A DNA stretch of 64,000 nucleotides, from positions 133,984,001-134,048,000 of the forward strand of contig CM059431.1 of the NCBI GenBank assembly GCA_030390025.1, written 5' to 3'. The position numbers and the translations under genes are program-made. Source of the stretch: Squalus acanthias (lineage: Eukaryota). The notes under the pieces are model-generated. The model was given only the letters and a program-made list of their open reading frames with translations, had not been told where the DNA came from and did not search any database. Below, piece by piece: positions 46,850 through 64,000 of the stretch. Each line of letters opens with the position of its first letter. Position 1 is the stretch's first letter.

Positions 46850-47571
46850 ATCCTTTCTAGCATGCAAGGGGTGGGCAAATCCATTGGTGCACTTGTGGAC
46901 CCAACCATCATGCAGCGTCTGATGGCCAATGCCTCAGCTTCCATTGCAACACAAGCAGAAGTCACCCAACGTCTGAGTGCTGCAGTGGAAGCTCAGACTG
47001 AAGTCATGCAAGCTCAGCTTGCTGCCTCACAAGCACAGGCTGTTGCCAGCATGGCTGCGGTTAGCAGTGTTGAAAGGGGCTTACAGGGTGTCACAGCAGT
47101 CCAGCAAGCTGTCCTCCAACAGATTACTAGGATTGCTGAGGTGCCACTCCGGTGGAGTGGCAGCAGCTCTGTGGAGGACGAACCTGCTGTCCTCTCTCAG
47201 GAAGACAGCATTCGTCCTCCCACCACTGCTACTCCACCAGTGCCCTTGCTGTTGACTGTCAGCCAGCTAGCCAAGACTGCTGCCGCCCATGCTAAGGTGG
47301 TGCAGTCGGAAGCCAGGCCGACTAGGCCCAGGACTGCTCGAGGTTGTCCTGCAAGGCCTTCTGCAGTCTCCCCCACTGAAAGTTAACAGCCTTCTACCAG
47401 CCGTGCTGCAACCACTGGGGTAGCGCTGCATAGGAGCACAAGGAAAGGCAAAGGCACACGGAAGACAGGCACTAAGGGAATGCACAAGGGTGATTAGTTA
47501 ACTTTTGAATGAAATATTGCAATGGTTTGATTCATAAAATTGGTTTGGAATGTTTGTTTTGTGGTGGCTTT

Positions 47572-49379
47572 TCTACGAAAGGCTGATATTTAAAGATATT
47601 TAGTGGACGAGAATCATATATGTATAAATTCAAGTGTAGCCATTGACCAAATAGTATTACCCATAATTACTCCTGGGTAACTAAAATACTGAGGGGGAAA
47701 AATTCAGTTGGTTGCGCCTCCCGTTAGCGCCTTAAGAGGGCGCTAATGGGGCGCAAAGCAACTAGCGCCCGGGTGCGGCGATGTTTGTGCCGCTTGCGAA
47801 ATTAACTAGACATTTTGCGGTGGCGTTAAACACTACCGCCACGATCTCCTGCACCGGCAGATCGTGACGTCAGTCGAGTGTGCAACGCCCCGGTAGCGCC
47901 CCAGAGCGGATATTGAGTGGCGCCCCCTGCCGCTAGCAACGACAGGTTGAGTGGAGCGTTTTGCAGTCAGGAAGGGACTGGGGGAGCGCTATTTAAAGGC
48001 GACCGCTTCCTGCCTTTTTTTGTTGGTGACATTTTTGAACCACGCATTCTGAGAGAGAGAGAGAGAGACTTCTGGAGAGATTCAACGCTGTGTGAAGGAG
48101 TTTTGGGTACTGAGCAGCACTTTGCAGGTTCATTTTGATTTGCCCTTCCTTGTATCGATTTAGAAGAGACTGTGGGGGCTGCACTCTGAGCTCTTTCCCT
48201 GGTACGCTCCATTGTTCTTTCCAGCAGATTTGATGTACAGGTCTCTCCAGGCCGAGATTCAAGGCTGCAATGAGCAGGATGTGGAGGGAAAGCAAGATCA
48301 ACCCTCCTCTTTAAGAACTGGCCGGCGCCATTGTGTCTGTGTTCCATTGCTGACTGACATCACATGAGCTTAGCCAGTGCTCTGAGTTAGCGCCTCGCTC
48401 CACGGCCTTTGCGCCTTAAGACAGATGTGTAGCGCCTGATTTAGCACTCCAATCACCTCCAGGGGCAATAAAAGTCAAGTTTGCAGTTGGAGGCGATAAT
48501 TAGCCCCAGGCGCTAATCTTTGCGCCCGGCCGATAATTGCGTCCCAAACGGGGCGATACTAAATTTCTCCCCCAAGGACTTTTTCAGAATGCAGCTGCGA
48601 GGTCAGTCAAAAGCAGTTTTGACTAAGTTTTGATAACAAACAGCCACAGGCTGCAAGTGAAGGTCAAATTGTTAAATAACATATTATCGTGCTAAGCAGA
48701 AATTAGAGTTCGCTTAACAAAACTAATTGCAACAATATTAAAAGGATAATTAGTATAAGGACATAAAATGAGAAAAATCATGGAAGTTAAGGTATTTATC
48801 TGGTAGATTGAAGTGAGATAGCCTGGATACCGTCAAGCCAAGCCTAGGGAGACAACGATGATATGGGCCCCTTGGTGTGAGGCCTTGTACCGCTTGTACC
48901 AGGGGAGGCAGGAATAAAAGAGATAAGATGAATTCCAATGGGGTGAAAAGCTATAAACAAGATAACAAGACAGCAGGGGAGAGTTAGGGGAAAAGTACCG
49001 AAAAAGGAGTGGCCAGGTTACTAGCCTTAACCTGAGTGACAATGGTATTTTGATCATTAGAACCAATTAAAGAAGGTGATTTTGTTAAAGACCATATATG
49101 GACACTGGCCAAATGAACTGTTGATAAGAAAAGTGTTAAAACCTCGATACTGAAAGAACAGAGATTTGCTGCGAGGAAAAGGAACAGACTAACGACGACG
49201 TCGCCTGTGTCCGAAGGGCACCAGAGACCAAGGGCTGCGAGCTATTCATTTCGACTATCGCCTAATGTTAAGTATTGATTACGCTGTAAACTTAATAAAT
49301 CTGATCTATTGCTCAAATATACTGGCTGCTGCCTATGTGTCTTGTCGTGAACTCTGAGAGGTCACTTGATTGACTTACA
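47572..49379 (+). mobile_element. Putative solo LTR (~930 bp) with 4-bp TSD, containing a MITE
   Basis: CTTT|TCTA...TTACA|CTTT, an AATAAA about 80 bp from the right end, and Harbinger sequence that rejoins across it. Confidence 0.65.
47693..48573. mobile_element. Harbinger-type MITE, copy 2
   Basis: End-to-end similarity to 11101-11995. TIRs GGGGGAAAAATT / AATTTCTCCCCC. Confidence 0.88.
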
Positions 49380-49775
49380 CTTTTATTTTAGCATTGTGGC
49401 CGAGAGAACGCTGTGATGGTCAATAACAGAGGGAAGGTAAGGAGTGGAACTACTGCTGAATGGAGAATTGGGGTTGTGTTCACTGGTACCGGAGTCGGTT
49501 GAGTTGATCACGGACAGCTTGTCCTGCTCTATGTTGCCTCTGCTCATTCTCCCTGTCATGCTGCAGGCCAAGGGGGATACAAACTAGTGCTTCCATGTCT
49601 GGGAGCAAGTGGTTTGAGCACAAGCCTTGTAAGTTAGTACTAAGTCCTTGAACACATGCAACATCACTCCTTGTAGGCAACTTTAAAGAAGTCTAGAAAG
49701 CACCAAACAATTCTACAAAATCAGCAACAGCTAGTAGAAATAATCAGCAACCAACCTGTAAGTAGGTGACGATCC

Positions 49776-50152
49776 ATAAGAACATAAGAAATAGGAGTAG
49801 GAGCAGGCCGTACAGGCCCCTCAAGCCTGCTCCGCCATTCAATAAGATCATGGCTGATCATCGACTTCAACTCTACTTTCACGCTCGATCTCCATATCCC
49901 TTGATTCCCTGAGAGTCCAAAAATCTATCTATCTCAGCCTTGAATATACTCGAAGACTCAGCATCCACAGCTCTCTGGGGCAGACAATTCTAAAGATTCA
50001 CAACCATCTGAGTGAAGAAATTCCTCCTCATCTCGGTCTTAAATGGCCTACCCCTTATCCTGAGACTATGCCCCCTAGTTCTAGACACTCCAGCTAGGGG
50101 AAACAACCTCTCAGCATCTGCCTTCTCAATCCCCTTTAGAATCTTGTATGTT
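49776..50152 (-). mobile_element. CR1 3' end
   Basis: (CATAAGAA)n tail at the left end. The minus strand reads TYKILKG...SRTRGHSL...MRRNFF. Confidence 0.88.
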
Positions 50153-51807
50153 GAAATAGTGGACAACCAAGGGTCTAGCGAGAATGAGGAACTGAAAGAT
50201 ATTAGTATTAGTAAAAAAGTAGTACTGGGGAAATTAATGGGACTGAAAGCTGATAAATCCCCTGGACCTGACTGCCTACATCCTCGGGTTTTGAAAGAGT
50301 TGGCGAAAGAGATAGTGGATGCATTGGTTGTCATTTTCCAAAATTCCATAGATTCTAGAATGGTTCCCGCGGATTGGAAGGTAGCAAATGTAATCCCACT
50401 ATTTAATAAAGGAGGGAGAGAGATAACGGGGAACTACAGACCAGTTAGCCTGACATCAGTAGCAGGGAAAATGCTAGAATCGATTATTAAGGACATGGTA
50501 ACAGGGCAATTAGAAAATAATAATAGGATTGGGCAGAGTCAACACGGATTTATGAAAGGGAAGTCGTGTTTGACAAATCTGTTAGAGTTTTTTGAGGTTG
50601 TAACTAACAGAATAGATAAGGGGGAACCAGTGGATGTGGTGTATTTGGATTTTCAGAAGGCATTCGATAAGGTGCCACACAAGAGGTTATTAAACAAATT
50701 AGGGCTCATGGGATTGGGGGTAATATACAAGCATGGATTGAGGATTGGTTAACGGACAGAAAACAGAGAGTAGGAATAAATGGGTCATTTTCGGGTTGGC
50801 AGGCTGTAACTAGTGGGGTACCGCAAGGATCAGTGCTTGGGCCTCAGCTATTCACAATCTACATCAATGATTTGGATGAGGGAACCAAATGTAATATAGC
50901 CAAGTTTGCTGATGATGCAAAGATGGGTGGGAATGTAAGTTGTGAGGAGGATGCAAGGAGGCTTCAAGGAGATATAGACAGGCTAAGTGAGTGGGCAAGA
51001 ACATGGCAAATGGAATATAATGTGGGGAAATGTGAAGTTTTCCACTTTGGTAGGAAAAATAGAAAAGCAGAGTATTTTTTAAATGGTGAGAGATTGGGAA
51101 ATGTTGGTGTTCAGAGGGACCTGGGTGTCCTTGTACACAAATCACTGAAAGTTAACATGCAGGTACAGCAAGCAATTAGGAAAGCAAATGGTATGTTGTC
51201 CTTTATTACAAGAGGATTTGAGTATAAGAGTCTTACTGCAATTATATAGGGCCCTGGTGAGACCACACCTGGAGTAATGTGTACAGTTTTGATCTCCTTG
51301 CCATAGAGGGAGTGCAACGAAGGTTCACCAGACTGATTCCTGGGATGGGGGATTGTCCTATGAGGACAGATTGAGTAGACTAGGCCTATACTCTCTAGAG
51401 TTTAGAAGAATGAGAGGTGATCTCATTGAAACATACAAAATTCTTACAGGGCTTGACAGTGTAGATGCAGGGAGGATGTTTCCCCCTGGCTGGGGAGTCT
51501 AGAACCAGGGTCACAGTCTCAGAATAAGGGGTCGGCCATTTAGGACCGAGATGAGGAGAAATTTCTTCACTCAGAGGGTGGTGAATCTTTGGAATTCTCT
51601 ACCCCAAAGGGCTGTGGAGGCTCAGTCATTGAGTATATTCAAGTCAGAGAGCGATAGATTTTTTGGATATGAAGGGAATCAAGGGATATGGGGATAGTGC
51701 AGGAAAGTGGAGTTGAGGTAGAAGATCAGCCATGATCTTATTGAATGGCGGAGCAGGCTCAAGGGACCGAATGGACTACTCCTCCTGCTGTTTCTTATGT
51801 TCTTATG
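50153..51807 (+). mobile_element. 5'-truncated CR1 (RT to tail)
   Basis: ORFs 50012-50752 and 50833-51249, TTCTTATG tail. Confidence 0.92.
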
Positions 51808-51809
51808 TC

Positions 51810-52886
51810 ACCAGGCAAAAGACTTAAGGCATTAAACATGCTCAAATTGATCATAAGCAAACAACCTACAGAAGAAAAATATTGGGAATCCTGAATAGAA
51901 CAAACTACAGAATTCAGAGGAGTAATAGCAAAAGTAGACTTGGGCCTATTACATATTCCAATTAAAAGTAATGTCTTGACCCAATTCTAGAAAAAAATTC
52001 AAAGGGATACAGAGGATTTTAAAGAAACTGCAGCAAAACTGAGATCTATAATCAGAACATCTCAAACTACCGTGTAAAAATTAATAAACTTAAGGACATG
52101 GTTAGAGAAGAAGAAAGTGCAGGGAAATTGATTACATATATTATTAGAAATTTTGGAGAACATGGAACAACTGTCTTGTCAGAATGCCTGTCACTTAAAC
52201 AGCAGAGACATTTAGCAAAAGCAATGGCAAATTATAGGGATGAAGAACAGAGGATAGAAAGCTTATGTCAGACGGTCGCTAAGGGAAATGGAGATATAAA
52301 AGACTATGACTACAAGGCAGCCAAAGAAAGGGAAGTAGGAACCAAACCAGAAGTACTAAAACCAACAGACGGTAGAGAACCAATGTATGAACCAAATCCA
52401 CCAACAATGACATTAAACAAGTAAGATTTAACCCCAATGCTAGCCCATTTAGGCCACAAGACATCAAGGGAATTCGGACTGAGACAGAAGAGAATATGGC
52501 TTCCCGAGCCACATAGATATGGTGGAGGTTATTTTCAGAATAACCGAGGTAGAGGGAACTTGGGACCTGGAGCAAGAGATAGGCCAAGATTCTCCTACTC
52601 AGGAGATCGAAGAGATTAATGCTAGGAAGTCAGCAGTCCAAAATCCCTGGAATATAGTGTAAAAATTTTAGGGAAGACATAGGAAGCTCTGGTGGACACT
52701 GGATCTGACTTCACTATGATTTGCAGTAGACACTTCAATGATTTGCAGAATGAAACCCCTTCAATAGGGGAATTCTTGTACATGGAGTGGGAAGTGAAAT
52801 GGGAATAAAATATCACACCAGAATAGAAATAGCAGAATTCAAATTTAAGAGAGATAGACGTCATAGCATTACAATTAAGAGAGAAT
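51810..52886 (+). pseudogene. Endogenous retrovirus remnant: gag C-terminal part and protease N-terminal part
   Basis: A-rich coding-like DNA with a GR-rich segment YGGGYFQNNRGRGNLGPGARDRPR and the protease motif ALVDTGSD near 52685. Confidence 0.65.
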
Positions 52887-53191
52887 GAAGGCTAAATTCG
52901 ATAACGCCAGAAAACAGGCACGGGATCACGAGGCGGGATGAACCCACTCCAGTTCAATGTAATGCATGCAGCACGCCAACTTCGTGCCGCCTGCTCATTT
53001 ACATGATTTGTGCATGCAGCCAACGCTATCTGCGCTTTCGATTGGCTGCATGCTTCAGCAGGGGACCCAAAATCTGGAGAGACTAGAACCAGTTAAAGCC
53101 AGCCTGCACCTCTTAAAAAGGAGGTGCATTGTGCTGGAGCAGATACCGGAAATCATTCTACAACTGATTCTGACCTGGGAAACATTCAATA

Positions 53192-55052
53192 ATGACTCAA
53201 CATGGGAGAAAGTGGGCTCCAAGGTTTTCCAATGCTGCACTGCTGGAGGGGGTGGAAAGGAGGACAGATGTGTTGTCTCCACAAGGGGCCAGGAGACCCT
53301 CCAGACACACATTCAGAAGGCAGTGGAAGCAGATAGCTGTGGCGGTCAATGCCAAGAGTCAAGCCCCCGAGGACCTGAATTCAGTGCAGGAAGCTGTTTA
53401 AAGACCTCACACGAGTGGTCAAGGTCAGTGAATGCATCTTCAAATGCCATATCCTACCAACTGCACCACTAGCCTCAGCCACTACTCAATGCACCACCCA
53501 TCACTAACAATCTACCAACAATCTCTATCAATCAGGACTCGTACCTAACATTCATACCTTCACCTCACCCTCACATTTAGCACTGCTGAAAGCTTCACAC
53601 CCACATCTCACAGCTTGCAAAAACTGCCAGCTATTCAACCATGACAGCAACATCAGCCAAACATATTGCATGACATTCACTGACACACTTCCCTCTCTCA
53701 TGCAGGGCAAGGTGGCGCACAACCGGAGGCAGCAGGAGTTAACCAGCGGGGGACAGGCGCGTCTGAATGTCCTAACCCCAATGGAGGAAACGGTGTTGGT
53801 CATTCTTGGGAGAGATATTGCTGAGCCCGTGGCCAGCGGCATGCCTGAAACCAAAGAAGATGACAGTATCGTCTTACCTAATCCTCCTTCTCACATCCCA
53901 CTTCGCTCTCATCCCACAATCTCTTCTGATTTATAGCTGCAGATGATGTAAGCATGCACCTCTTGCTTTTACCACCCTCACCCCCCCTCCCCCCGCACAT
54001 CCTCCCCTCACCACAACCTTACCCTTGTGCCTTTCTCCTTTTAGATACCCAAGATCTGCAATCTGGACAGGCATCGGTAGAAGAGCAACAAGACATTGAT
54101 GATGAAGACACACCATCACTCGATTTCACACTCACAGCCACCAGCTCAGATACTGAGGTTGGCACAGAGATGGGATCTGCACGTGGTGAGATACCAGGCA
54201 CGAGTGGCCTTGCAGCCTGACATGGGGAAGGATAGCACAGGTGCTAGCTCACCAGAGGGCAAAGTCGCACTAGAGTTCTGCTGCAGAGGATTCAGCAGAG
54301 CACTTCAATGGGGCAGGCTACAGAAGAAGGCTAATGGGGAAACACAATGAAATGCTTGGTGCATTGGGAAGCCTGCCAAAAAGCAATGTCAAGGAGCATG
54401 GCTGAGTCCGGCATCAACTTGGCACAGGGCTTTGCGTAGAGCTTGGAGCACATCCTTTCCAGCATGAAGTGGTGCACAACTCTATTAGCACACTTGTGGT
54501 TCCCACCATGATGCAGCGTCTGATGGCCGATGGCTGTTTCCATTGCAGTACAGGCAGCAGCCACCCAACGTCTGAGTGCTGCAGTAGAAGCTCAGACTGC
54601 TGCCATCATGGCTCTGGATTCCAGTGTTCAAAGGGGCTTGCAGGGTGTCACAGCAGTCCAGCAATCTGTACTCCAGCAGATTACTAGGACCGCTGAGGCG
54701 CCACCCCAGGGGAGTGGCAGTGGCTCCGTGGAGCACGAACCTGCTGTCCTCTCTCAGGATGACAGCATTCATCCTCCCACCACTGCCACTCTGCCAGTGC
54801 CCTTGCTGTTGCCTGTCAGCCAACCAGCCCAAACTGCTGTCGCACATGCTGCAATGGTGCAGTCCGCAGCCGGGCATTCTAGGTCCAGAGCTGCTCGAGG
54901 TCGTCCTCCAAGGTCATCTGCCATCTCCTCCACTGAAAGTCAGCAGCCATCCACCAGCCATGCTGCAGCCACTGGGGTAACACTGTGTAGGAGCACTAGG
55001 CCAGGCAAAGGCACACGGAAGATAGGCACTAAGGGAATGCACAAGGGTGATT
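53192..55052 (+). pseudogene. Three-exon Harbinger Myb/SANT partner gene, decayed
   Basis: Exons 53192-53423 (AAG|GTCAGT), 53706-53865 and 54045-~55052. Contains APRFSNAALLEGV..QWKQIA, acidic and Ala/Gln-rich segments, and RGRPPR. Confidence 0.75.
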
Positions 55053-55068
55053 CGTTTACGTTTATATA

Positions 55069-56708
55069 TTTTTTAATTCGTTTATGGGATGTGGGCATCA
55101 CTGGCAAGGCCAGCATTTATTGCCCATCCCTAATTGCCCTTGAGAAGGTGGTGGTGAGCCGCCTTCTTGAACCGCTGCAGTCCGCGTGGTGAAGGTACTC
55201 CCACAGTGCTGTTAGGGAGGGAGTTCCAGGATTTTGACCCAGCGACGATGAAGGATCGGCGATATACTTCTAAGTCAGGATGGTGTGTGACTTGGAGGGG
55301 AACTTGGAGGTGGTGGTGTTCCCATCCGCCTGCTGCCCTTGTCCTTCTAGGTGGAAGAGGTCATGGGTTTGGGAGGTGCTGCTGAAGAAGCCTTGGCGAG
55401 TTGCTGCAGTGCATCTTGTAGATGGTACACACTGCAGCCACGGTACGCCGGTGGTGGAGGGAGTGAATGTTTAAGGTGGTGGATGGGGTGCCAATCAAAC
55501 GGGCTGCTTTGTCCTGGATGGTGTCGAGCTTCTTGAATGTTGTTGGAGCTGCACTCATCCAGGCAAGTGGAGAGTATTCCATCACACTCCTTACTTGTGC
55601 TTTGTAGATGGTGGAAAGGCTTTGGGGAGTAAGGAGGTGAGACACTCGCCGCAGAATACCCAGCCTCTGACCTGCTCTTGTTGCCACAATATTTATGTGG
55701 CTGGACCTGTTAAGTTTCTGGTCAATGGTGACCCCCAGGATGTTGATGGTGGGGGATTCAGCGATGGTAATGCCGTTGAATGTTAAGGGGCGGTGGTTAG
55801 ACTCTCGCTTGTTGGTGATAGTCATTGCCTGGCACTCTGTGGCGCGAATGTTACCTGCACTTATCAGCCCAAGCCTGAACGTCGTCCAGGTCTTGTTGCA
55901 TGCGGGCATGGACTGCTTCATTATCTGAGGAGTTGTGAATGGCTCTGAACACTGTACAGTCATCAGCGAACATCCCCATTTCTGACCTTATGTAGGAGGG
56001 AAGGTCATTGATGAAGCAGCTGAAGATGGTTGGGCCTTCAACCACCACAACCATCTTCCTTTGTGCTAGGTAGGACTCCAGCTAGTGGAGAGTTTCCCCC
56101 CCACCGATTCCCATTGACTTCAGTTTTACTAGGGCTCCTTGATGCCAGACTCGGTCAAATGCTGCCTTGATGTCCAGGGCAGTCAACTCTCACCTCACCT
56201 CTGGAATTCAGCTCCTTTGTCCATGTTTGGACCAAGGCTGTAATGAGGTCGGGAGCCAAGAGGTCTTGGCGGAACCCAAACTGGGCATCAGTGAGCAGGT
56301 TATTGGTGAGTAAGTGCCGTTTGATAGGACTGTCGATGACACCTTCCATCACTTTGCTGATGATTGAGAGTAGACTGATGGGGCGGTAATTGGCCGGATT
56401 GGATTTGTCCTGGTTTTTGTGAACAGGACATACCTGGGCAGTTTTCCACATTGTCGGATAGATGCCAGTGTTGTAGCTGTACTGGAACAGCTTGGCTAGA
56501 GGCGCGGCTAGTTCTGGAGCACAAGTTTCCAGCACGATAGCCGGGATGTTGTCGGGGCCCATAGCCTTTGCTTTATCCAGTGTGCTCAGCCGTTTCTTGA
56601 TATCACAGGGAGAGAATCGAATTGGCTGAAGACTGGCTTTTGTGATGGTGGGGACCTCAGGAGTGGGCCGATATGGATCATCCACTCAGCACTTCTGGCT
56701 GAAGATGG
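55069..56708 (-). mobile_element. Zenon-like LINE, 5'-truncated, TSD TATATA
   Basis: ORFs 56155-56685 (NYRPISLLS, QFGFR) and 55361-55963. TATATA occurs at 55063-55068 and 56709-56714. Confidence 0.87.
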
Positions 56709-56871
56709 TATATACAATACGGCTTGATTTAATTTATAAGTTTGGTTTGAAATGTTTATTTTGTGGAGGCTTTTAATTTGGTATTGTGGTCAAGCTGACG
56801 CTGTGATGGTCAGAGGGAAGGGAAGGCGTGGGACTGTTCATGAATGGGAATGGAGGTTGCGTTTACTGGTA

Positions 56872-57984
56872 TCACACTCGGATGAGATCTTCACGGATAG
56901 CCCAGCCAGAAATGGGCTGTCTAGATTGCCTCCTCCCTTCCTCTTCCTCCTCAGCTGCTTGCCGTATTGCTGGTGGCAAGGGCTGTGCCCTCATGATAGT
57001 GAGATTGTGCAGCATGCAGCAAACCACCACGAATCTTGACACCCGCTCTGCCGAGTACTGCAGGGCTTCCCCAGAGCGCTCCAGGCAGCGAAAACTTTGT
57101 TTCATAACGCCAACGGTCTGCTCTATCACATTTCCTGTGGCAGCATCTCCTTCATTGTATGCATGCTGCGAATGTGTGCGTCAGTTGTGCACTGGAGTCA
57201 TCAGCCATCTTGTCAGCGGATATCCCTCGTCGCCCGGTAGCCACCCTTTGGTTTGTCTTGGGGCTCAAATGCAGATGGCACAGCTGACTGCCATAGAATG
57301 AAGGCATCATGACTGCTGCCAGGATACTGGGCATTGACCAGCATGATTCACTGCCTATGGCTGCACATCAGCTGGATGTTGAGGAAACGTAATCACTTTT
57401 GGTTCCGGTATATGGCAGAGATGACATGCGGCACCCGCAAAGCGGTGTGCGTGCAGTCAATGGCATCCTGCACCATGGGGAAGCCTGCGATCCTTGTGAA
57501 GCTGCCTGCTCTCTCCACCTGCTCCTCTCTGGCAAGAGAGAATGAAATGTAGTCAGCTATCTTTGAATAGAGAGCCTTACGCAACAGTGGATGGCAAACT
57601 GCGAGGTGGTGCAAATATCTCCAGCTCCTGGAAGGAGCCTGACGCATAAAAGATCATCGTCAAGGTCACCTTGACAGCCACTGGCAATGCAGTACTTGCT
57701 CTGCTCTGAAGTTGCAGTTGTGGCTGCAGCAGGTGGCAGATTTCAGTGAGGATGTCCTTACTGAAGAGCAAACGTCTCACACATTGTTCCTCGCTGAGGT
57801 TCAGGTAGGAGAATTGCTCCCTGAACACCCTGGGCGGATATGGCCCTCTGCTGAGAGCCCTTCTCGCCCTCATCCTCCTCCCTCTTCCAGCAGCTTGTTC
57901 TGCTCTGTGTGCCCTCTGGTCATTCTCCAAGTCATGCTGAATTCCAAGGGGAATTCCTACTAGTGCACCCATGTCTGGCAGCAA
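56872..57984 (-). pseudogene. HARBI1-like DDE transposase, frameshifted
   Basis: RRLLFSKD, ASGSFQ, AGFPMVQDAIDCTH, IEQTVGVMKQSFRCL, CCMLHN. Confidence 0.9.
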
Positions 57985-58098
57985 GTGGTTTGTGCAGAAG
58001 TTTTGAAGTCAGGAAAAAGTTCTTCAGCAATTGCCACATCACTCCCTGTAGACTTTGGCGTCCAAAAGACGGGCGCTACGAATCCGAATTTTGCGCCC

Positions 58099-58845
58099 AA
58101 TAGATTTAGGGTGATTCTCAGCCGTGATATCATCCAATATCTACCTATCCATGTATGTGCCCTTCCAGTGGAATCTGAGAATACTCTTCCTGAGTTAATC
58201 TGACAATTACAAATACCTGAAACTTAAAAAGGAGAACCAGAGAGAGTACTTAGGAGATTTGAGTCGGGATATGCGCAGGACAAAAATGATTGTGGATATA
58301 TACCAGATGAGGAAGGTGACATTTCAAGATAGGCCCACAATGCAGTAAGACAATACCGGATTAATCCTAAAACTAAGGAATCACTAAAATCACTGAATCA
58401 TTTAGAAAATCAAGGAATACTAGAAAACTGCAGATCAAACACTAATTCACCTGTCCTAGTGCTGCCCAAACCAGATGGGAATTGAGAATGGCAATAGATT
58501 ATAGGGAACTTAACAAATGCACTAGACCTCACAAAGCAACGAATACTCATGGGGAAGCTATGATAGAAAATTTACCACAGTGGTGAATGGATTTTGGTCC
58601 ATACCTTTAGCCCTAAAAGATACAGATAAAACTGCGTTTACCTTTGGGGGATGTCAATATAGGTGGACTAGATTGCCTCAAGGATTTAGAAATTCTCTTG
58701 CTGTATTGTCTGAATTTGTACAAAGTACGTTGGAGGATGAGGAGACTGTTTACTCTTACATAGATGATGTGCAGTTTTCACGTGATGAGGTAGAAGAACA
58801 CCTGCCTATACTTTGGAGAGTACTCGCTAAACTTACAGACAAAGA
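58099..58845 (+). pseudogene. ERV protease C-terminus plus reverse transcriptase, foamy/spuma-like
   Basis: VILSRD; QYRINPKTK; NSPVLVLPKPDG; RMAIDYRELNK; NGFWSIPL; QYRWTRLPQGFRNS; YIDD; EEHL. Confidence 0.8.
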
Positions 58846-59119
58846 ACCTGAAATTTTGCACCTTAGCCCCAGCTGTTAAGGAAAAAATGGCATCCGCCTC
58901 GTTTCTGCCCACTTGGGGGGAAAAAAGTGGCGTTTTTTTTAACTTCGTCTGAAGCAGGCGTTAGGCAATTAACATATTCAAATACGGGGCCTAATACCTG
59001 TTTTTGTTCACTCTCGCAAATTTGGGTTGCGTCTGAGGCAGCCAGCACCAGCAATGTTTACTCCTGGGATAACAAACATTATGATAAAAAGGTAAGCAAT
59101 TACCATTACCAACTCCGAC

Positions 59120-61600
59120 CTCACTCCCGACTCCAACCTCCAGGTCCTCTCCAATCTTCCCCCGATGCTGGCCCCAACCTCCACATCCCTCCAATGCTGG
59201 CCCCAACCTTCCCCCAATGCTGGCCTGAGTCCCGATCTTCCCCAAATGCTGGCCCCGAGTTCCGACATCCTCCCGATGCTGGCCCAAGTCCCGATCTCCC
59301 CCAAATGCTGGCCCCGAGTCCCGCTGGCCCCAACCTCACCCTATTGCTGGACCCGAGTCATAGAATCATAGAATGGTTACAGCACAGAAGGAGGCCATTC
59401 GGTCCATCGAGCCCGTGCTAGCTCTCTGCAAGAGCACATCAGCTAGTCCCACTCCCCAGCCTTTCTCCGTAGCCCTGCAAATTTTTTCCTTCAGGTGCTC
59501 ATCTAATTCCCTTTTGAAAGTCACGATTGAGTCTGCCTCTACCACCCTTTCAGGCAGTGCATTCCAGATCCTAACCACTCGCTGCATAAATAAGTTTTTC
59601 CTCATGTTGCCTTTGGTTCCTTTGTCAAACACCTTAAATCTGTGTCCACAGGTTCTCGACCCTTCCACCAATGGGAACAGTTTCTCTCTATCTACTCTGT
59701 CTAGACCCATCATGATTTTGAACACCTCTATCAAATCTCCTCTCAACCTTCTCTGCTCTAAGGAGAACAACCCCAGCTTCTCTAGTCTATCCACATAACT
59801 GCAGTCCCTCATCCCTGGAACCATTCTTGTAAATCTTTTCTGCGCCCTCTCTAAGGCCTTCACATTCTTCCTAAGGTGCGGTGCCCAGAATTGAACACAT
59901 TACTCCAGTTGAGGTCGAACCACTGTTTTATAAAGGTTCATCATAACTTCCTTGCATTTGTACTCTATGCCTCTATTTATGAAGCCCAGGATCCCGTATG
60001 CTTTTTTAATCACTTTCTCAACCTGCCCTGCCACCTTCAACAATTTGTGCACATATGCCCCCAGGTGTCTCTGTTCATGCAACCCCTTTAGAATTGTACC
60101 CTTTAGTTTATATCGCCTCGCCTCGTTTTTCCTACGAAAATGTATCACTTCGCACTTTTCTGCATTAAATTTCATCTGCCACATATCCATGCTGCCATTG
60201 TCCCTTTTATTCCATGGGCTTCAATTTTGCTGGAAAGTCTATTATGTGACACTTTATCAAACGCCTTTTGGAAGTCCATGTACAGTATGTCAACCGTATT
60301 GCCCTCATCAACCCCTCTGTTACTTCATCAAAAAATTCAATCAAGTTAGTTAAACACAATTTCCCTTTAACAAATCCGTGCTGGCTTTCCTTAATGAATC
60401 CACACATGTCCAAGTGACTGTTAATTTTGTTCCTCATTATCGTTTCTAAATGCTTCCCCACTACCGAGGTTAAACTGACTGGCCTGTAGTTGCTGGGTTT
60501 ATCCTTACACCCTTTTTGAACAAGGGTGTAACATTTGCAATTCTCCAGTCCTCTGGCACCACCCATGTCTCAGGAGGATTGGAAGATTATGGCCAGTACC
60601 TCCACGATTTCCACCTTAACTTCCCTCAGCATCCTAGGATGCATCCCATCCGGTCCTGGTGACTTATCTGCTTTAAGTATAAACAGTTTTCTAGTACCTC
60701 CTCTTTATCAATTTTTGTCCCATTCAGTATCTCCGCTACCTCCTCTTTCACTATGACTTGATCAGCATCTTCTTCCTTGGTTTCCTCCTTTCAGCCATGC
60801 CCTCTGACTCCATGCGTAGGTCTCCTTTTTGGTCCCTAATCGGCCCCAACTTTCCTCTTACTACCCGTTTACTATTTATGCCTATAGAAGACTTTTGAAT
60901 TCCCTTTTATGGTAGCTTCCGATGGCCCCAACCTCCCCCCGATGCTGACCCCGAGTCATGCTGGCCCCGACCTCCCCCGATGCCGAACCCGAGCCCCGCT
61001 ATCCCCGAATCCCCTAGACGCTAGCCCCGAGTCCCGATAGCCCCAACCTCCCCTACTGATGCTGGCCCCGAGTCCCGATGGCCCCAACCTCCCCCCCCCC
61101 CATACTGGCCCCGAGTCCCACTGGCCCAAACATCCCCCCCCCCCCCCACAATGCTGGCCCCGAGTCCCACTGGCCCAAACATCCCCCCCCCAATGCTGGC
61201 CCCGAGTACCGATGGCCCCAACCTCCCCCGCCCGATGGCCCTGAGTACCGATGGTCCCAACCTCCCCCCGCCATGCTGGCCCCGAGTCCCACTGGCCCAA
61301 ACATCCCCCCCCCCCCAATGCTGGCCCCGAGTCCCACTGGCCCAAACATTCCCCCCCCAATGCTGGCCCCGAGTCCCACTGGCCCAAACATCCCCCCCCC
61401 AATGCTGGCCCCGAGTCCCACTGGCCCAAACATCCCCCCCCCAATGCTGGCCCCGAGTCCCACTGGCCCAAACATCCCCCCCCCCACAATGTTGGCCCCG
61501 AGTCCCGATGGCCCCAAACATCCCCCCCCCACAATGCTGGCCCCGAGTCCCGATGGCCCCAACCTCCCCCTCCCGATGGCCCTGAGTCCCTACCTACCTC
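59120..61600. repeat. C-rich minisatellite (about 40-bp unit ATGCTGGCCCCGAGTCCCACTGGCCCAAACAT(C)n) split by CR1
   Basis: Degenerate units at 59120-59357 and more homogeneous units at 60920-61600. Confidence 0.9.
59359..60920 (-). mobile_element. 5'-truncated CR1 with internal deletions
   Basis: ORFs 59366-59863, 59900-60190 and 60207-60566 (-), with a (CATAGAAT)n tail. Confidence 0.9.
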
Positions 61601-61712
61601 AGAGTCCTTGCTGGGCGTTCAGCTGTTTAGCGCTGGGCTGAACGTTACAATAATGATAATCAGCAGGCAGCACCAAGCTTCGGTGCTGCCTGCGATCTTT
61701 TAATAGGAAAGA

Positions 61713-61800
61713 AAACATATACCATGATATCAGAAAGAGAAAACAGGAATGCAGAGCGGGATTAATAGAGCACATAAGTTAGCACAGCAGGAAGCCAGGG
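61713..61800 (+). pseudogene. Probable ERV RNase H C-terminal remnant
   Basis: KHIP*YQKEKTGMQSGINRAHKLAQQEA fits the retroviral H-I-P-G-H...G-N-x-x-A-D-x-L-A pattern with substitutions. Confidence 0.45.
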
Positions 61801-61892
61801 GAACGGAATCCATGATCGTAACACGATCATGGAAAGATACTCGGCCGTGACAAACACTGACCCACAGGAACCAATCCTGTGTGTAGGAGTAA

Positions 61893-62348
61893 GGGGGGCG
61901 ATTTCCCCCCGATCCTTTAGGCGCTAAAGAGCCTCCGAGGTGGCTAAATTTTGGGCCTTAAGCTGAAATGCCAGTTTAGCCCACATTTAGCGCAAGATGG
62001 TACCTTAGTAAAGGAGCTGAAGCTTGTGCTAGGAACAGCTGCTCAGAGGACCCATCCCCAGCCTTACCTTTAACTGCTGTGAGCATTGGCCCTTCCCTTT
62101 AAGGGAGGGAAGGAGCCTGCGAATCCGGCAGCACTGCATGCAACATTGACCAGCACTCTGCCGATACCACCCCCTCACTCCCTTTAGCGCTCTAAGGGAA
62201 GTGGTAGCGCTTGATTTAGCGCTCCCCTTCCCTCTTGGAGCGCTACAACTGAATTTCGCGGGAGCCTCTCATCATTAGCACCTGGCTATAATTTTTCTGC
62301 TTCTGAAGTTTTAGCGCCCCAAAAGGGGCTATAATGAATTTCTCCCAC
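61893..62348. mobile_element. Harbinger-type MITE abutting the Gypsy truncation
   Basis: TAA|GGGGGGCGATTT...GAATTTCTCCCAC with several TTAGCGC/GCGCTAA motifs. Confidence 0.65.
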
Positions 62349-63647
62349 AATGTTCTCAGTTTCTAGTCTTTTGAGTTCTTGCTCAACTTTCTCCTCGAGT
62401 GCGTATGGTACAGGATGTGGCTTGTAGTAAACTGGTCTTGTGTCCTTCTGCATTCTGACACTCACCTTGAAGTCTTGGATCGGACTACCCGTTTCGCTGA
62501 ACACCTTCGGATACTGCTTGATGACATCATCTTTCGAGGCAAATTTCGCTTCCGCATGAAAAATCTCATTCCAATCCAGCTTCAGTGATCCCAACCAACT
62601 TCTACCTATCAAGGCAGGCTTGTCTCCTGCCACTACTATGAGAGGCAAGCTCTGACACTGATCCTTGTATTTCACTGGTATGGTGACACTTCCTACTACA
62701 GGGATTTGCTCTCCCGAGTAGTCTCGCAGCTCTACCTTCGATTCCTCTAGTCGATAATCATGCAACTTGTCGTAATATAGCGATTCCAGTACTACGCTTA
62801 CGGATGCACCAGTGTCGATTTCCATGGGTATCCTGGTTCCTGCAACATCTACTTGGATGACGATACCTCGCGAATCGCTGTTAGATACCTTCGTGCTCCT
62901 GATGACGTGAATCTCCAGAAACTCCTCGTCCTGCTGCTGCTCTGCAACGGTATGTAGTGTCTGGTGATTTCTACTTCTAAGATTGCCAGTCGGTTTACTC
63001 TGCTTTCGGCACGCCTTCGCAAGATGCCCAGTTTTCTTGCAGTTGAAACACTCTGCCTTCACATATGGACAGCTTTGAGCAATGTGTTGTCCCAGGCACT
63101 GATATGACACTGATAGGCACGACTTCAATGCACTGTTACCTTGGCCAGTTGCTGAGACCTTGGGGCCCAACTGCCTTTTACTTTTAGCCTGCAGTCGATT
63201 CACCTCGGTTGTCTGATAACTGGAAATGGCGCGAAACTCTCGGGAGTATCGGTCAGCCATATCCATCGACATAGCTGTCTGAAAAGCTAAGTCAAAAGCT
63301 AAGTTATGGGTTGTCAACAATTTACTTCTGATATGTTCATTTTTCAACCCACAAACAAAGCGGTCACGCAAAGCTCGGTCCTGAAAGTTTCTGGAATGAC
63401 AGTGAATGGATGGCTTGGTGGGAACAAGCAAGTTTTTCAGGGTTTCATACACCTCGGGGCCTGCTTCAGTCAAAAAAATAGCCCTTTTCCTTTCTAAAAC
63501 CGCCCGGTTACAGGTGACATCATCGGGGACTTCGACGATACTATTCGCGGTGAAAAACATTTCTAGCCGCTTCACATACGCTCCGAAAGTCTCTCGGTCA
63601 CGATCGAACTCACCCAAGCGCCCTATTATTCCCCTAGGCGCGGCCAT
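62349..63647 (-). CDS. Gypsy Gag-protease open frame, truncated at the start of RT
   Basis: YVKRLEMFFTAN, LRDRFVCGL, CCHC knuckle CFNCKKTGHLAKAC, protease MEIDTGAS...LIGRSWL, pre-RT PVPYALEEKVEQELKRL. Confidence 0.8.
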
Positions 63648-63799
63648 CTGGACTCTGGCAACATCGACAGTTCAACCACGTGTGCTCGAAATTACCTCGG
63701 ATGTTTACGTTTTTTCTGCAAAACGAAGAACATCTAACAGTCCCTCCATCGGTTGGCAGGAATATCCTCCAACAAAAATTTCAGCTAGGGAATCTGCAG

Positions 63800-63816
63800 T
63801 CCCATCCTCATCGCCA
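63800..63816 (-). promoter_or_regulatory. Primer-binding site, tRNA-Ser(GCT)-like
   Basis: The minus strand reads TGGCGATGAGGATGGGA, 4 nt inside the LTR end. It differs at one position from the complement of the vertebrate tRNA-Ser(GCT) 3' end (TGGCGACGAGGATGGGA). Confidence 0.75.
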
Positions 63817-64000
63817 ATTCTGTGATATCTTGCATTTCATAGGCTGCAGTGTGGTCCCAGCATATATATACACAACTGCATAACATGGCTTCCAGTAAGA
63901 ACTGCACTGCCCATGTGCTTTATTACTATATGCATCAGTAGTCACCAGGTGGTGCTATTACAATCAGGACAAAAGAACATTACAAGTCAGATACTATAAT

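Follow-up and report, generated by a model that had tools for sequence, protein, structure and literature searches.

A foamy-like endogenous retrovirus family of Squalus acanthias with host neurofilament and SMC1 cargo, and a possible circular RNA template

A 64,000-nucleotide stretch of the genome of Squalus acanthias (which we will call the window) contains the broken remains of a foamy-like endogenous retrovirus (ERV), and related copies elsewhere in the genome carry pieces of RNA from two host genes. The window is C7:133984001-134048000 of the 3.7-Gb assembly that we searched, and coordinates are window positions unless a contig is named. The reverse transcriptase (RT) of the window copy falls among those of foamy and foamy-like viruses. 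In the sister copies, the 3' viral genes have been replaced, between retained cis signals, by part of an intermediate-filament gene and part of an SMC1 paralogue. Both pieces are of host origin, the SMC1 piece has lost an intron, and two of its exons are joined in non-colinear order on host splice sites. That a foamy-like element transduced host RNA is very likely, and the template of the SMC1 piece was quite probably a circular RNA (circRNA). As a whole, we think it probable that a helper-dependent transducing element of foamy-like type copied a germline circRNA by template switching, ~60-190 million years (Myr) ago. We lean, with less confidence, towards a more specific account, in which a chimaera-related lineage that is new in print packaged a germline circle of SMC1B exons 2-4, took it into its own genome through template switching, and then spread with the aid of a helper.

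The SMC1 piece is present in seven loci, where it lies 3' of the neurofilament segment, and it matches residues 122-206 of human SMC1A (E = 1.2e-24). A host gene on C11 has exons of 189, 113 and 204 nucleotides (nt), with canonical AG/GT edges, that the piece matches at ~90% identity; by homology, we take these to be exons 2-4. Within the element, the final 28-36 nt of exon 3 come first, followed by exon 4 and then by the first 53-74 nt of exon 2. The 6.2-kb intron is absent between captured exon 3 and exon 4. In six of the seven loci, exon 2 begins at its first base directly after exon 4; exon 4 is complete to its last base in four of these, and there is a small change in the last bases in the other two. 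(The seventh locus is deleted across the joint.) The joint between exon 4 and exon 2 falls on host splice sites, which is the signature of back-splicing. All of the captured sequence comes from exons 2-4, and its length falls short of one full circuit of such a circle. In a search of the host genome, exons 2 and 4 each had a single match, in the normal order, and no duplication of these exons was seen in today's genome. The 3' long terminal repeat (LTR) begins a few dozen bases after the SMC1 piece. The copies are 91-95% identical to exon 4 of the C11 gene. A paralogue on C3727 encodes an exon-4 peptide that hardly differs from that of human SMC1A, but it is only 67% identical to C11 exon 4, so the donor was the other paralogue (C11), which we infer to be SMC1B.

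The other cargo is rich in Glu and Lys and follows the integrase zinc finger. Its source is a host intermediate-filament gene on C13 (Filament domain, E = 1.2e-17; we take the gene to be NEFH-like), whose last exon it matches at 88% identity over 448 nt. The ESM Atlas gave no usable match for the neurofilament tail or for the Gag piece. The tail of the host neurofilament (L066:1640-2580, on C13) contains a long array of an 11-residue repeat, KPE[AP]KAEDKKD[TIL], with no KSP motifs in the array.

The window holds the only copy of the RT core that was found in the genome: the next protein match is 49% identical, and a DNA search with the RT core found nothing beyond two pieces, of 122 nt (84%) and 102 nt (74%). 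The sister family was reached through gag, which led to a copy on C22; the 3' part of that copy led to loci on C3 (two), C7, C8, C18 and C2 (two), and later on C11. The family comprises ~10 loci with internal sequence and ~30 LTR-only matches (43 matches listed). Across gag, the end of RNase H and the continuation beyond the window, the sister loci share 77-91% identity with the window copy. Sister LTRs are 720 and 734 nt long and start with TGTAG. A 17-nt pattern for a tRNA-Lys-type primer site matched L050 and L054, and near matches in L060 and L061 were read by eye; we presume that the primer was tRNA-Lys1,2. Foamy viruses and foamy-like endogenous retroviruses (FLERVs) use tRNA-Lys primers (PMC5512871, PMC5210030; here and below, statements about cited papers refer to the portions of their text that were available). 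Also encoded in the sister loci are a Gag N-terminus, the end of RNase H, and an integrase that stops after its zinc finger (E = 6.7e-10 for the finger). No integrase core or env is present in the loci that we read, and the tether region was not detected in those copies; in seven sister loci, reading reached ~1.5 kb from the matches, and env or a fuller pol could lie farther away. In three copies (L054/L063, L050 and L067), the 3' LTR follows the host cargo almost at once, with no env or accessory genes between them. The lack of env, tas and bet describes this defective family, not its progenitor. An earlier reading of the window from its sequence alone (the sequence-only reading) had called for a search for fuller copies; LTRs and a primer site were found in sister loci, and no env was seen in the loci that we read. 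Overall, the family's layout is an LTR of ~720-730 nt, a tRNA-Lys-type primer site, gag, pro, RT, RNase H, an integrase zinc finger, neurofilament-tail RNA, SMC1-paralogue RNA, a short purine tract and an LTR. The LTR pairs at two loci have a Kimura two-parameter distance of 0.19. This would date capture or insertion to ~190 Myr ago if the substitution rate is 0.5e-9 (the rate assumed for catshark in PMC10699275) or to ~60 Myr ago if it is 1.5e-9; both rates are assumptions.

Several sister copies have expanded repeats. In L054, L050, L055 and L049, the stretch from the Gag N-terminus to the end of RNase H holds large AGAGAT-rich short-repeat expansions, and L067 has an expanded unit of 37-38 nt in its LTR region. 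The copies on C22, at C3:89.76M and at C2:116.23M (L048, L049 and L053/L056) have degenerate tandem repeats of ~80 nt after the integrase zinc finger, and these partly displace the neurofilament segment.

The element is almost certainly foamy-like. Among structures in the PDB, its RT core scored 62 bits against foamy Pol chains versus 34 bits against Ty3, so the resemblance is not due to chance. (Word-index protein searches found few retroviral relatives: there were two matches, and otherwise mostly plant Gypsy proteins.) References for phylogenetic trees came from a profile search of 1.84 billion representatives. Names for the feline foamy virus, chimaera, salamander, catshark and frog proteins came from look-up, and those for several teleost proteins from the database names; Snakehead retrovirus, a lamprey lokiretrovirus and two groups, ZFERV-2-like and AciFLERV-like, were picked out by eye with the help of a published alignment. 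Of the 303 RT domains fetched, about 245 are not in the trees, most of them Gypsy sequences or redundant; the 27-row IQ-TREE tree is a subset, and the 57-row tree is a quick tree. The best match of the X-read RT is a protein from Callorhinchus milii (P0191, XP_007889123.1; 147 bits, 38% identity over 197 amino acids). In the 27-row tree, the window RT lies within the foamy and foamy-like clade (100/99) as the sister of P0191 (92/93). This pair is grouped with feline foamy virus and a salamander element (88/90), separate from the mostly teleost FLERVs (98/96). The 57-row tree has the same topology, and the foamy clade has a Shimodaira-Hasegawa-like support (SH-aLRT) of 99.

These trees bear out the spuma-like identity that the sequence-only reading had proposed. 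That reading had also named the groups whose inclusion of the RT would count against it, and the approximately unbiased (AU) test places the RT outside both Gypsy (Ty3/Gypsy) and epsilon/gamma ERVs (p = 0.0003 each). Its alternative suggestion, a lokiretrovirus-like lineage, fails: grouping with Loki is rejected as well (p = 0.0003, with a single Loki reference, P0246, that was identified by eye from the published lamprey sequence), and published Loki RT motifs differ from ours. The proposed "basal" position has a mixed outcome, as the best tree makes the RT sister to the chimaera Pol, but the AU test does not reject a position basal to all other foamy-like rows (p = 0.073). The DTG motif of the protease, which had been contrasted with the DSG of mammalian foamy viruses, is not distinctive: in a motif search of 11 references, DTG was found in five of the six foamy-like references that matched, and DSG in one (the other five gave no match). 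FLERVs have already been reported from a chimaera (PMC5512871) and a catshark (PMC10699275), so the provirus alone would be a further lineage of a known group, and the chimaera-related lineage may already be in the supplements of those papers.

We propose that cellular RNAs were packaged together with the viral genome in the germline and that the RT changed over to them as templates, so that the integrase core, env and any accessory genes were replaced. The template for the SMC1 piece would have been a circle of exons 2-4. The defective genome would have kept its cis signals, a helper's integrase would have copied it to ~10 loci, and most copies would then have deleted more of gag-pol. Aspects of this proposal have precedents. 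LTR-mediated retrocopies arise by template switching and include multi-gene chimeras that move on as non-autonomous elements (PMC5131818). Human SMC1B yields testis-specific circRNAs (PMC5153637), and a circSMC1B is reported in cattle (PMC12023415), with the exon content unspecified in the available text of either paper.

The same capture could have used a linear RNA instead, if exons 2-4 were once duplicated in tandem or if two pre-mRNAs were trans-spliced. Either event likewise yields a splice-site-exact, non-colinear joint, other origins of such joints are cautioned about in PMC4897178, and no circle was seen in RNA contigs among the joints listed. We consider a linear template unlikely, given the single host match for each of exons 2 and 4, the absence of exons beyond 2-4 from the captured piece, and the documented SMC1B circles of mammalian testis. 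It is more doubtful still that the RT leapt back along an ordinary linear SMC1 mRNA, at a short microhomology, and met the exon edges by coincidence. Switches at microsimilarities do create such chimeras (PMC5131818), this family has several other switches, and exon ends often share AG|G. But of 59,913 donor/acceptor pairs, 1255 have at least 3 nt of microhomology; with so many on offer, a random switch would seldom land on two splice sites at once, yet the joint falls on both.

We also considered that the neurofilament-SMC1 chimera might be a working accessory protein of a transmissible virus, like a v-onc or a cohesin decoy. One copy reads the neurofilament end and SMC1 exons 3-4 as a single frame of 164 amino acids, and the ratio of nonsynonymous to synonymous change (pN/pS) is below 1 in 9 of 11 comparisons. 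However, a ratio of ~0.6 would be expected from host-side constraint plus transition bias, frameshifting gaps and stops are common, the joint between exon 4 and exon 2 shifts the phase, and the loci that we read have no env or integrase core. We judge such a protein to be quite improbable. The pooled pN/pS versus the host genes is 0.64 for SMC1 (six loci) and 0.66 for the neurofilament (five loci), with frameshifting gaps, as compared to 0.16 between the host's SMC1 paralogues, so the cargo looks like a passenger that decays almost neutrally and not like a working accessory gene. Finally, an smc gene is listed as a feature of lokiretroviruses (PMC7947760), which might suggest that the element is a lokiretrovirus and that the SMC1 piece is its hallmark. 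We rejected this candidate, which we consider barely credible: the Loki smc is fused in front of gag, whereas our element has a host exon set at 90% identity at its 3' end, and the RT motifs and the AU test (above) both disagree with it.

Returning to the proposed capture of a circle by a foamy-like element, several observations weigh against it or narrow its basis. In contigs of related organisms, linear splicing of exons 2-3-4 was seen in two of four runs, and the back-joint was not among the 15 joints listed; as another 290 joints are unlisted and intronic repeats dominate the table, the latter is no evidence either way. (In the sequencing-run listing, no holder is recorded as RNA.) All copies of the junction are from one capture, so they amount to one observation. 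The names of both donors, NEFH-like for the C13 gene and SMC1B for the C11 gene, are provisional. The SMC1 piece and the LTRs were not found in the window copy or in the 39 kb downstream, and the window copy's link to the cargo family is suggested by the 77-91% identity of gag, the RNase H end and the neurofilament cargo. The Gag label follows from position, with no support from Pfam, the ESM Atlas or BLAST. The tree is built on ~200 RT residues with one Loki reference, and the support for the chimaera sister is below the tool's star threshold. For the two-LTR copy on C3, the flanks differ and a target-site duplication was not readable. And no helper was identified; the next-best RT in the genome is 49% identical.

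In defective transducing retroviruses, partial host RNAs replace internal open reading frames between the LTRs. The LTR-mediated retrocopies are a close parallel as well: here too, partial RNAs of two host genes lie between intact LTRs and were amplified non-autonomously. But our carrier is foamy-like, and the exons of one template are in back-spliced order; the available text of PMC5131818 does not use the word "circular". The circRNA-derived pseudogenes, such as those of mouse circRFWD2 (PMC4897178), resemble our family in having a junction at back-splice sites, many copies and an association with LTRs. In mouse and human, flanking LTR sequence is enriched around these pseudogenes, with the mechanism left open in the text available to us. 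Those examples come from mammals; ours is in a cartilaginous fish and within a defined retrovirus, flanked by a truncated integrase on one side and the 3' LTR on the other, in a family whose LTR pairs are 0.19 apart. Lokiretroviruses, whose clade is sister to all other retroviruses, share with our family only the word "smc" and differ in RT placement and in having smc 5' of gag (PMC7947760); according to the same source, none were found in the cartilaginous-fish genomes that were screened. No F-protein-like Env of Loki type can be recognised either, as no env was seen in the copies that we read, and SMC is not mentioned in the available text of PMC5210030. In a literature search whose coverage mostly excluded subscription journals, there was no report of the capture of SMC1 or neurofilament sequence by a FLERV, or of a circRNA by any ERV.

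Among foamy viruses, we compared our element to feline foamy virus (P0166). The likenesses are the RT motifs, the weakly aligned C-terminal end of RNase H, the tRNA-Lys-type primer site of the sister loci and, as far as the window's decayed and position-labelled Gag can show it, a Gly/Arg-rich Gag end without a zinc knuckle. Unlike foamy viruses, the window's protease has DTG, its short pieces have no match to Spuma_A9PTase, no env, tas or bet was seen, and the RT lies outside the feline foamy virus subclade. Foamy viruses also have an internal promoter and a dual RNase H (a tether and a foamy-type domain), express Pol from a separate spliced mRNA and reverse-transcribe late, whereas the copies here are dead and fragmented. 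Of the chimaera elements, CmiFLERV and the protein P0191, the latter is our RT's best BLAST match and its sister in both trees, and the host is again a cartilaginous fish; but long branches separate P0191 from our RT, P0191 has no YxDD motif, and it is only possibly a published CmiFLERV. Only pol was detected for CmiFLERV (PMC5512871), while our family adds an LTR, a primer site, gag and host cargo. The reading frame of P0191, with foamy-like RT and tether regions, is open over 485 amino acids, which might reflect the co-option of a foamy-like gene; a comparable protein in the teleost-type rows is P0238.

The genome also contains a second foamy-like family with many copies (L002-L020, at least 19 loci on many contigs), which is 47-49% identical to the window's RT core. 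It has a Spuma_A9PTase match, a tether and RNase H, and in the tree it joins feline foamy virus (95/91) more closely than the salamander reference. Its placement could bear on the co-divergence of foamy viruses and their hosts. The sister of this family is P0181, a Logan contig that encodes a Gag-like region and Pol in one frame of 1687 amino acids. Mammalian foamy viruses are not known to have Gag and Pol in one frame.

In the window, the provirus remnant is bounded by a CR1-type long interspersed nuclear element (LINE) whose 5' part is inverted (49775-51808, plus strand), and no 5' LTR, primer site or Gag N-terminus of the provirus was found in the window. The gag remnant (51804-52640, plus strand) abuts this LINE on its 5' side, spans the middle and the Gly/Arg-rich C-terminal part of the protein, and has stops and frame changes; it is 84% and 77% identical to the second copy, on C22. 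At the C-terminal end, 21 of 63 residues are Gly or Arg and none are Cys. There is no CCHC pattern in three frames each of the window gag, the C22 gag and the sister Gag N-terminus, although decay limits this negative result. These counts are in line with the Gly/Arg-rich Gag end without a visible knuckle that the sequence-only reading had described. The broken N-terminal part of an aspartic protease (52650-52886, plus strand; ALVDTGSD starts at 52686) matches retroelement proteases among the fetched proteins with BLAST E values of 0.002-0.02; Pfam gave no match for the Gag, protease or RNase H pieces. As had been proposed, the protease is split by a Harbinger-type DNA transposon (52887-58098, minus strand, with a nested LINE piece), which has a 3-bp duplication, AAT, on both sides, imperfect inverted ends that share AAATTCG, and a remnant of a DDE_Tnp_4 transposase (E = 3.5e-9). 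The C-terminal end of the protease and the RT fingers and palm follow (58099-58846, plus strand; RVT_1, E = 2.8e-9). All of the motifs that had been named, including QYRINP, PKPDG, DYR, NGFW, LPQGF and YIDD, are where they were described, spread over several frames with stop codons. There are frame changes near 58480 and 58580, a few residues are missing before NGFW, and there is a stop at 58846.

Later insertions fill 58847-61697 (transposon-like ends, a minisatellite and a CR1-type LINE on the minus strand), and the RT thumb, the tether and most of RNase H were not detected there. The C-terminal end of RNase H, which the sequence-only reading had thought probable near 61713, is supported: with a linker towards the integrase zinc finger it occupies 61698-61892 (plus strand), with 84-91% identity to L044, L049-L052 and L054, and the piece at ~61698-61889 is 84-86% identical to sister copies. 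The matching peptide of one of these aligns, weakly, to the C-terminal end of RNase H in feline foamy Pol (35% over 40 amino acids, pairwise E = 0.003). In the window, the RNase H piece is followed by a non-autonomous DNA transposon that resembles a miniature inverted-repeat transposable element (MITE; 61893-62349, edges approximate, no strand assigned) and by an unrelated Gypsy-type gag-protease fragment with a zinc knuckle (62350-64000, minus strand; zf-CCHC and protease matches). The foamy-like element resumes beyond the end of the window, at L039:1159-1576 (C7:134048159-134048576), where it is 79-87% identical to the sister copies and matches the host neurofilament exon. The window copy's own cargo is therefore part of the neurofilament-tail segment (L039, to position 1576); its integrase core, env, SMC1 piece and LTR were not found in L039-L042. 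The window probably holds the most pol-rich remnant of an extinct FLERV family of cartilaginous fish, and this copy would later have been riddled by DNA transposons, LINEs and a Gypsy element.

A repeat at ~47570-49379 was a candidate for the provirus's 5' LTR (40 of 40 scored candidates matched it). We rejected it: it lies inside Harbinger sequence, other copies of it precede a different primer site, and none of the 14 other loci that we read is flanked by this element's gag or RT. The repeat is LTR-like but belongs to a different high-copy family; a MITE interrupts it, and it is 83-89% identical to 39 other loci.

Without its cargo, this provirus would be an ordinary dead FLERV, though it does add LTR, primer-site and gag data to a chondrichthyan foamy-like lineage that was described so far from pol alone. 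With the cargo, a back-splice junction lies within a defined retroviral genome, and this points to packaging and template switching as a route for the retroposition of circRNAs. These RNAs have no poly(A) tail, and their retroposition was left unexplained in the available text of PMC4897178. Our proposal predicts that a circle of exons 2-4 is present in shark gonad. If it is correct, then it dates one specific back-splice event to deep time (~60-190 Myr, in cartilaginous fish), it gives a direct anatomy for the origin of circRNA-derived pseudogenes, and it means that foamy-like viruses transduced host RNA in the germline, with this family as the first transducing element of foamy type. A retrovirus may here have caught a circular RNA and preserved it as a very ancient fossil.

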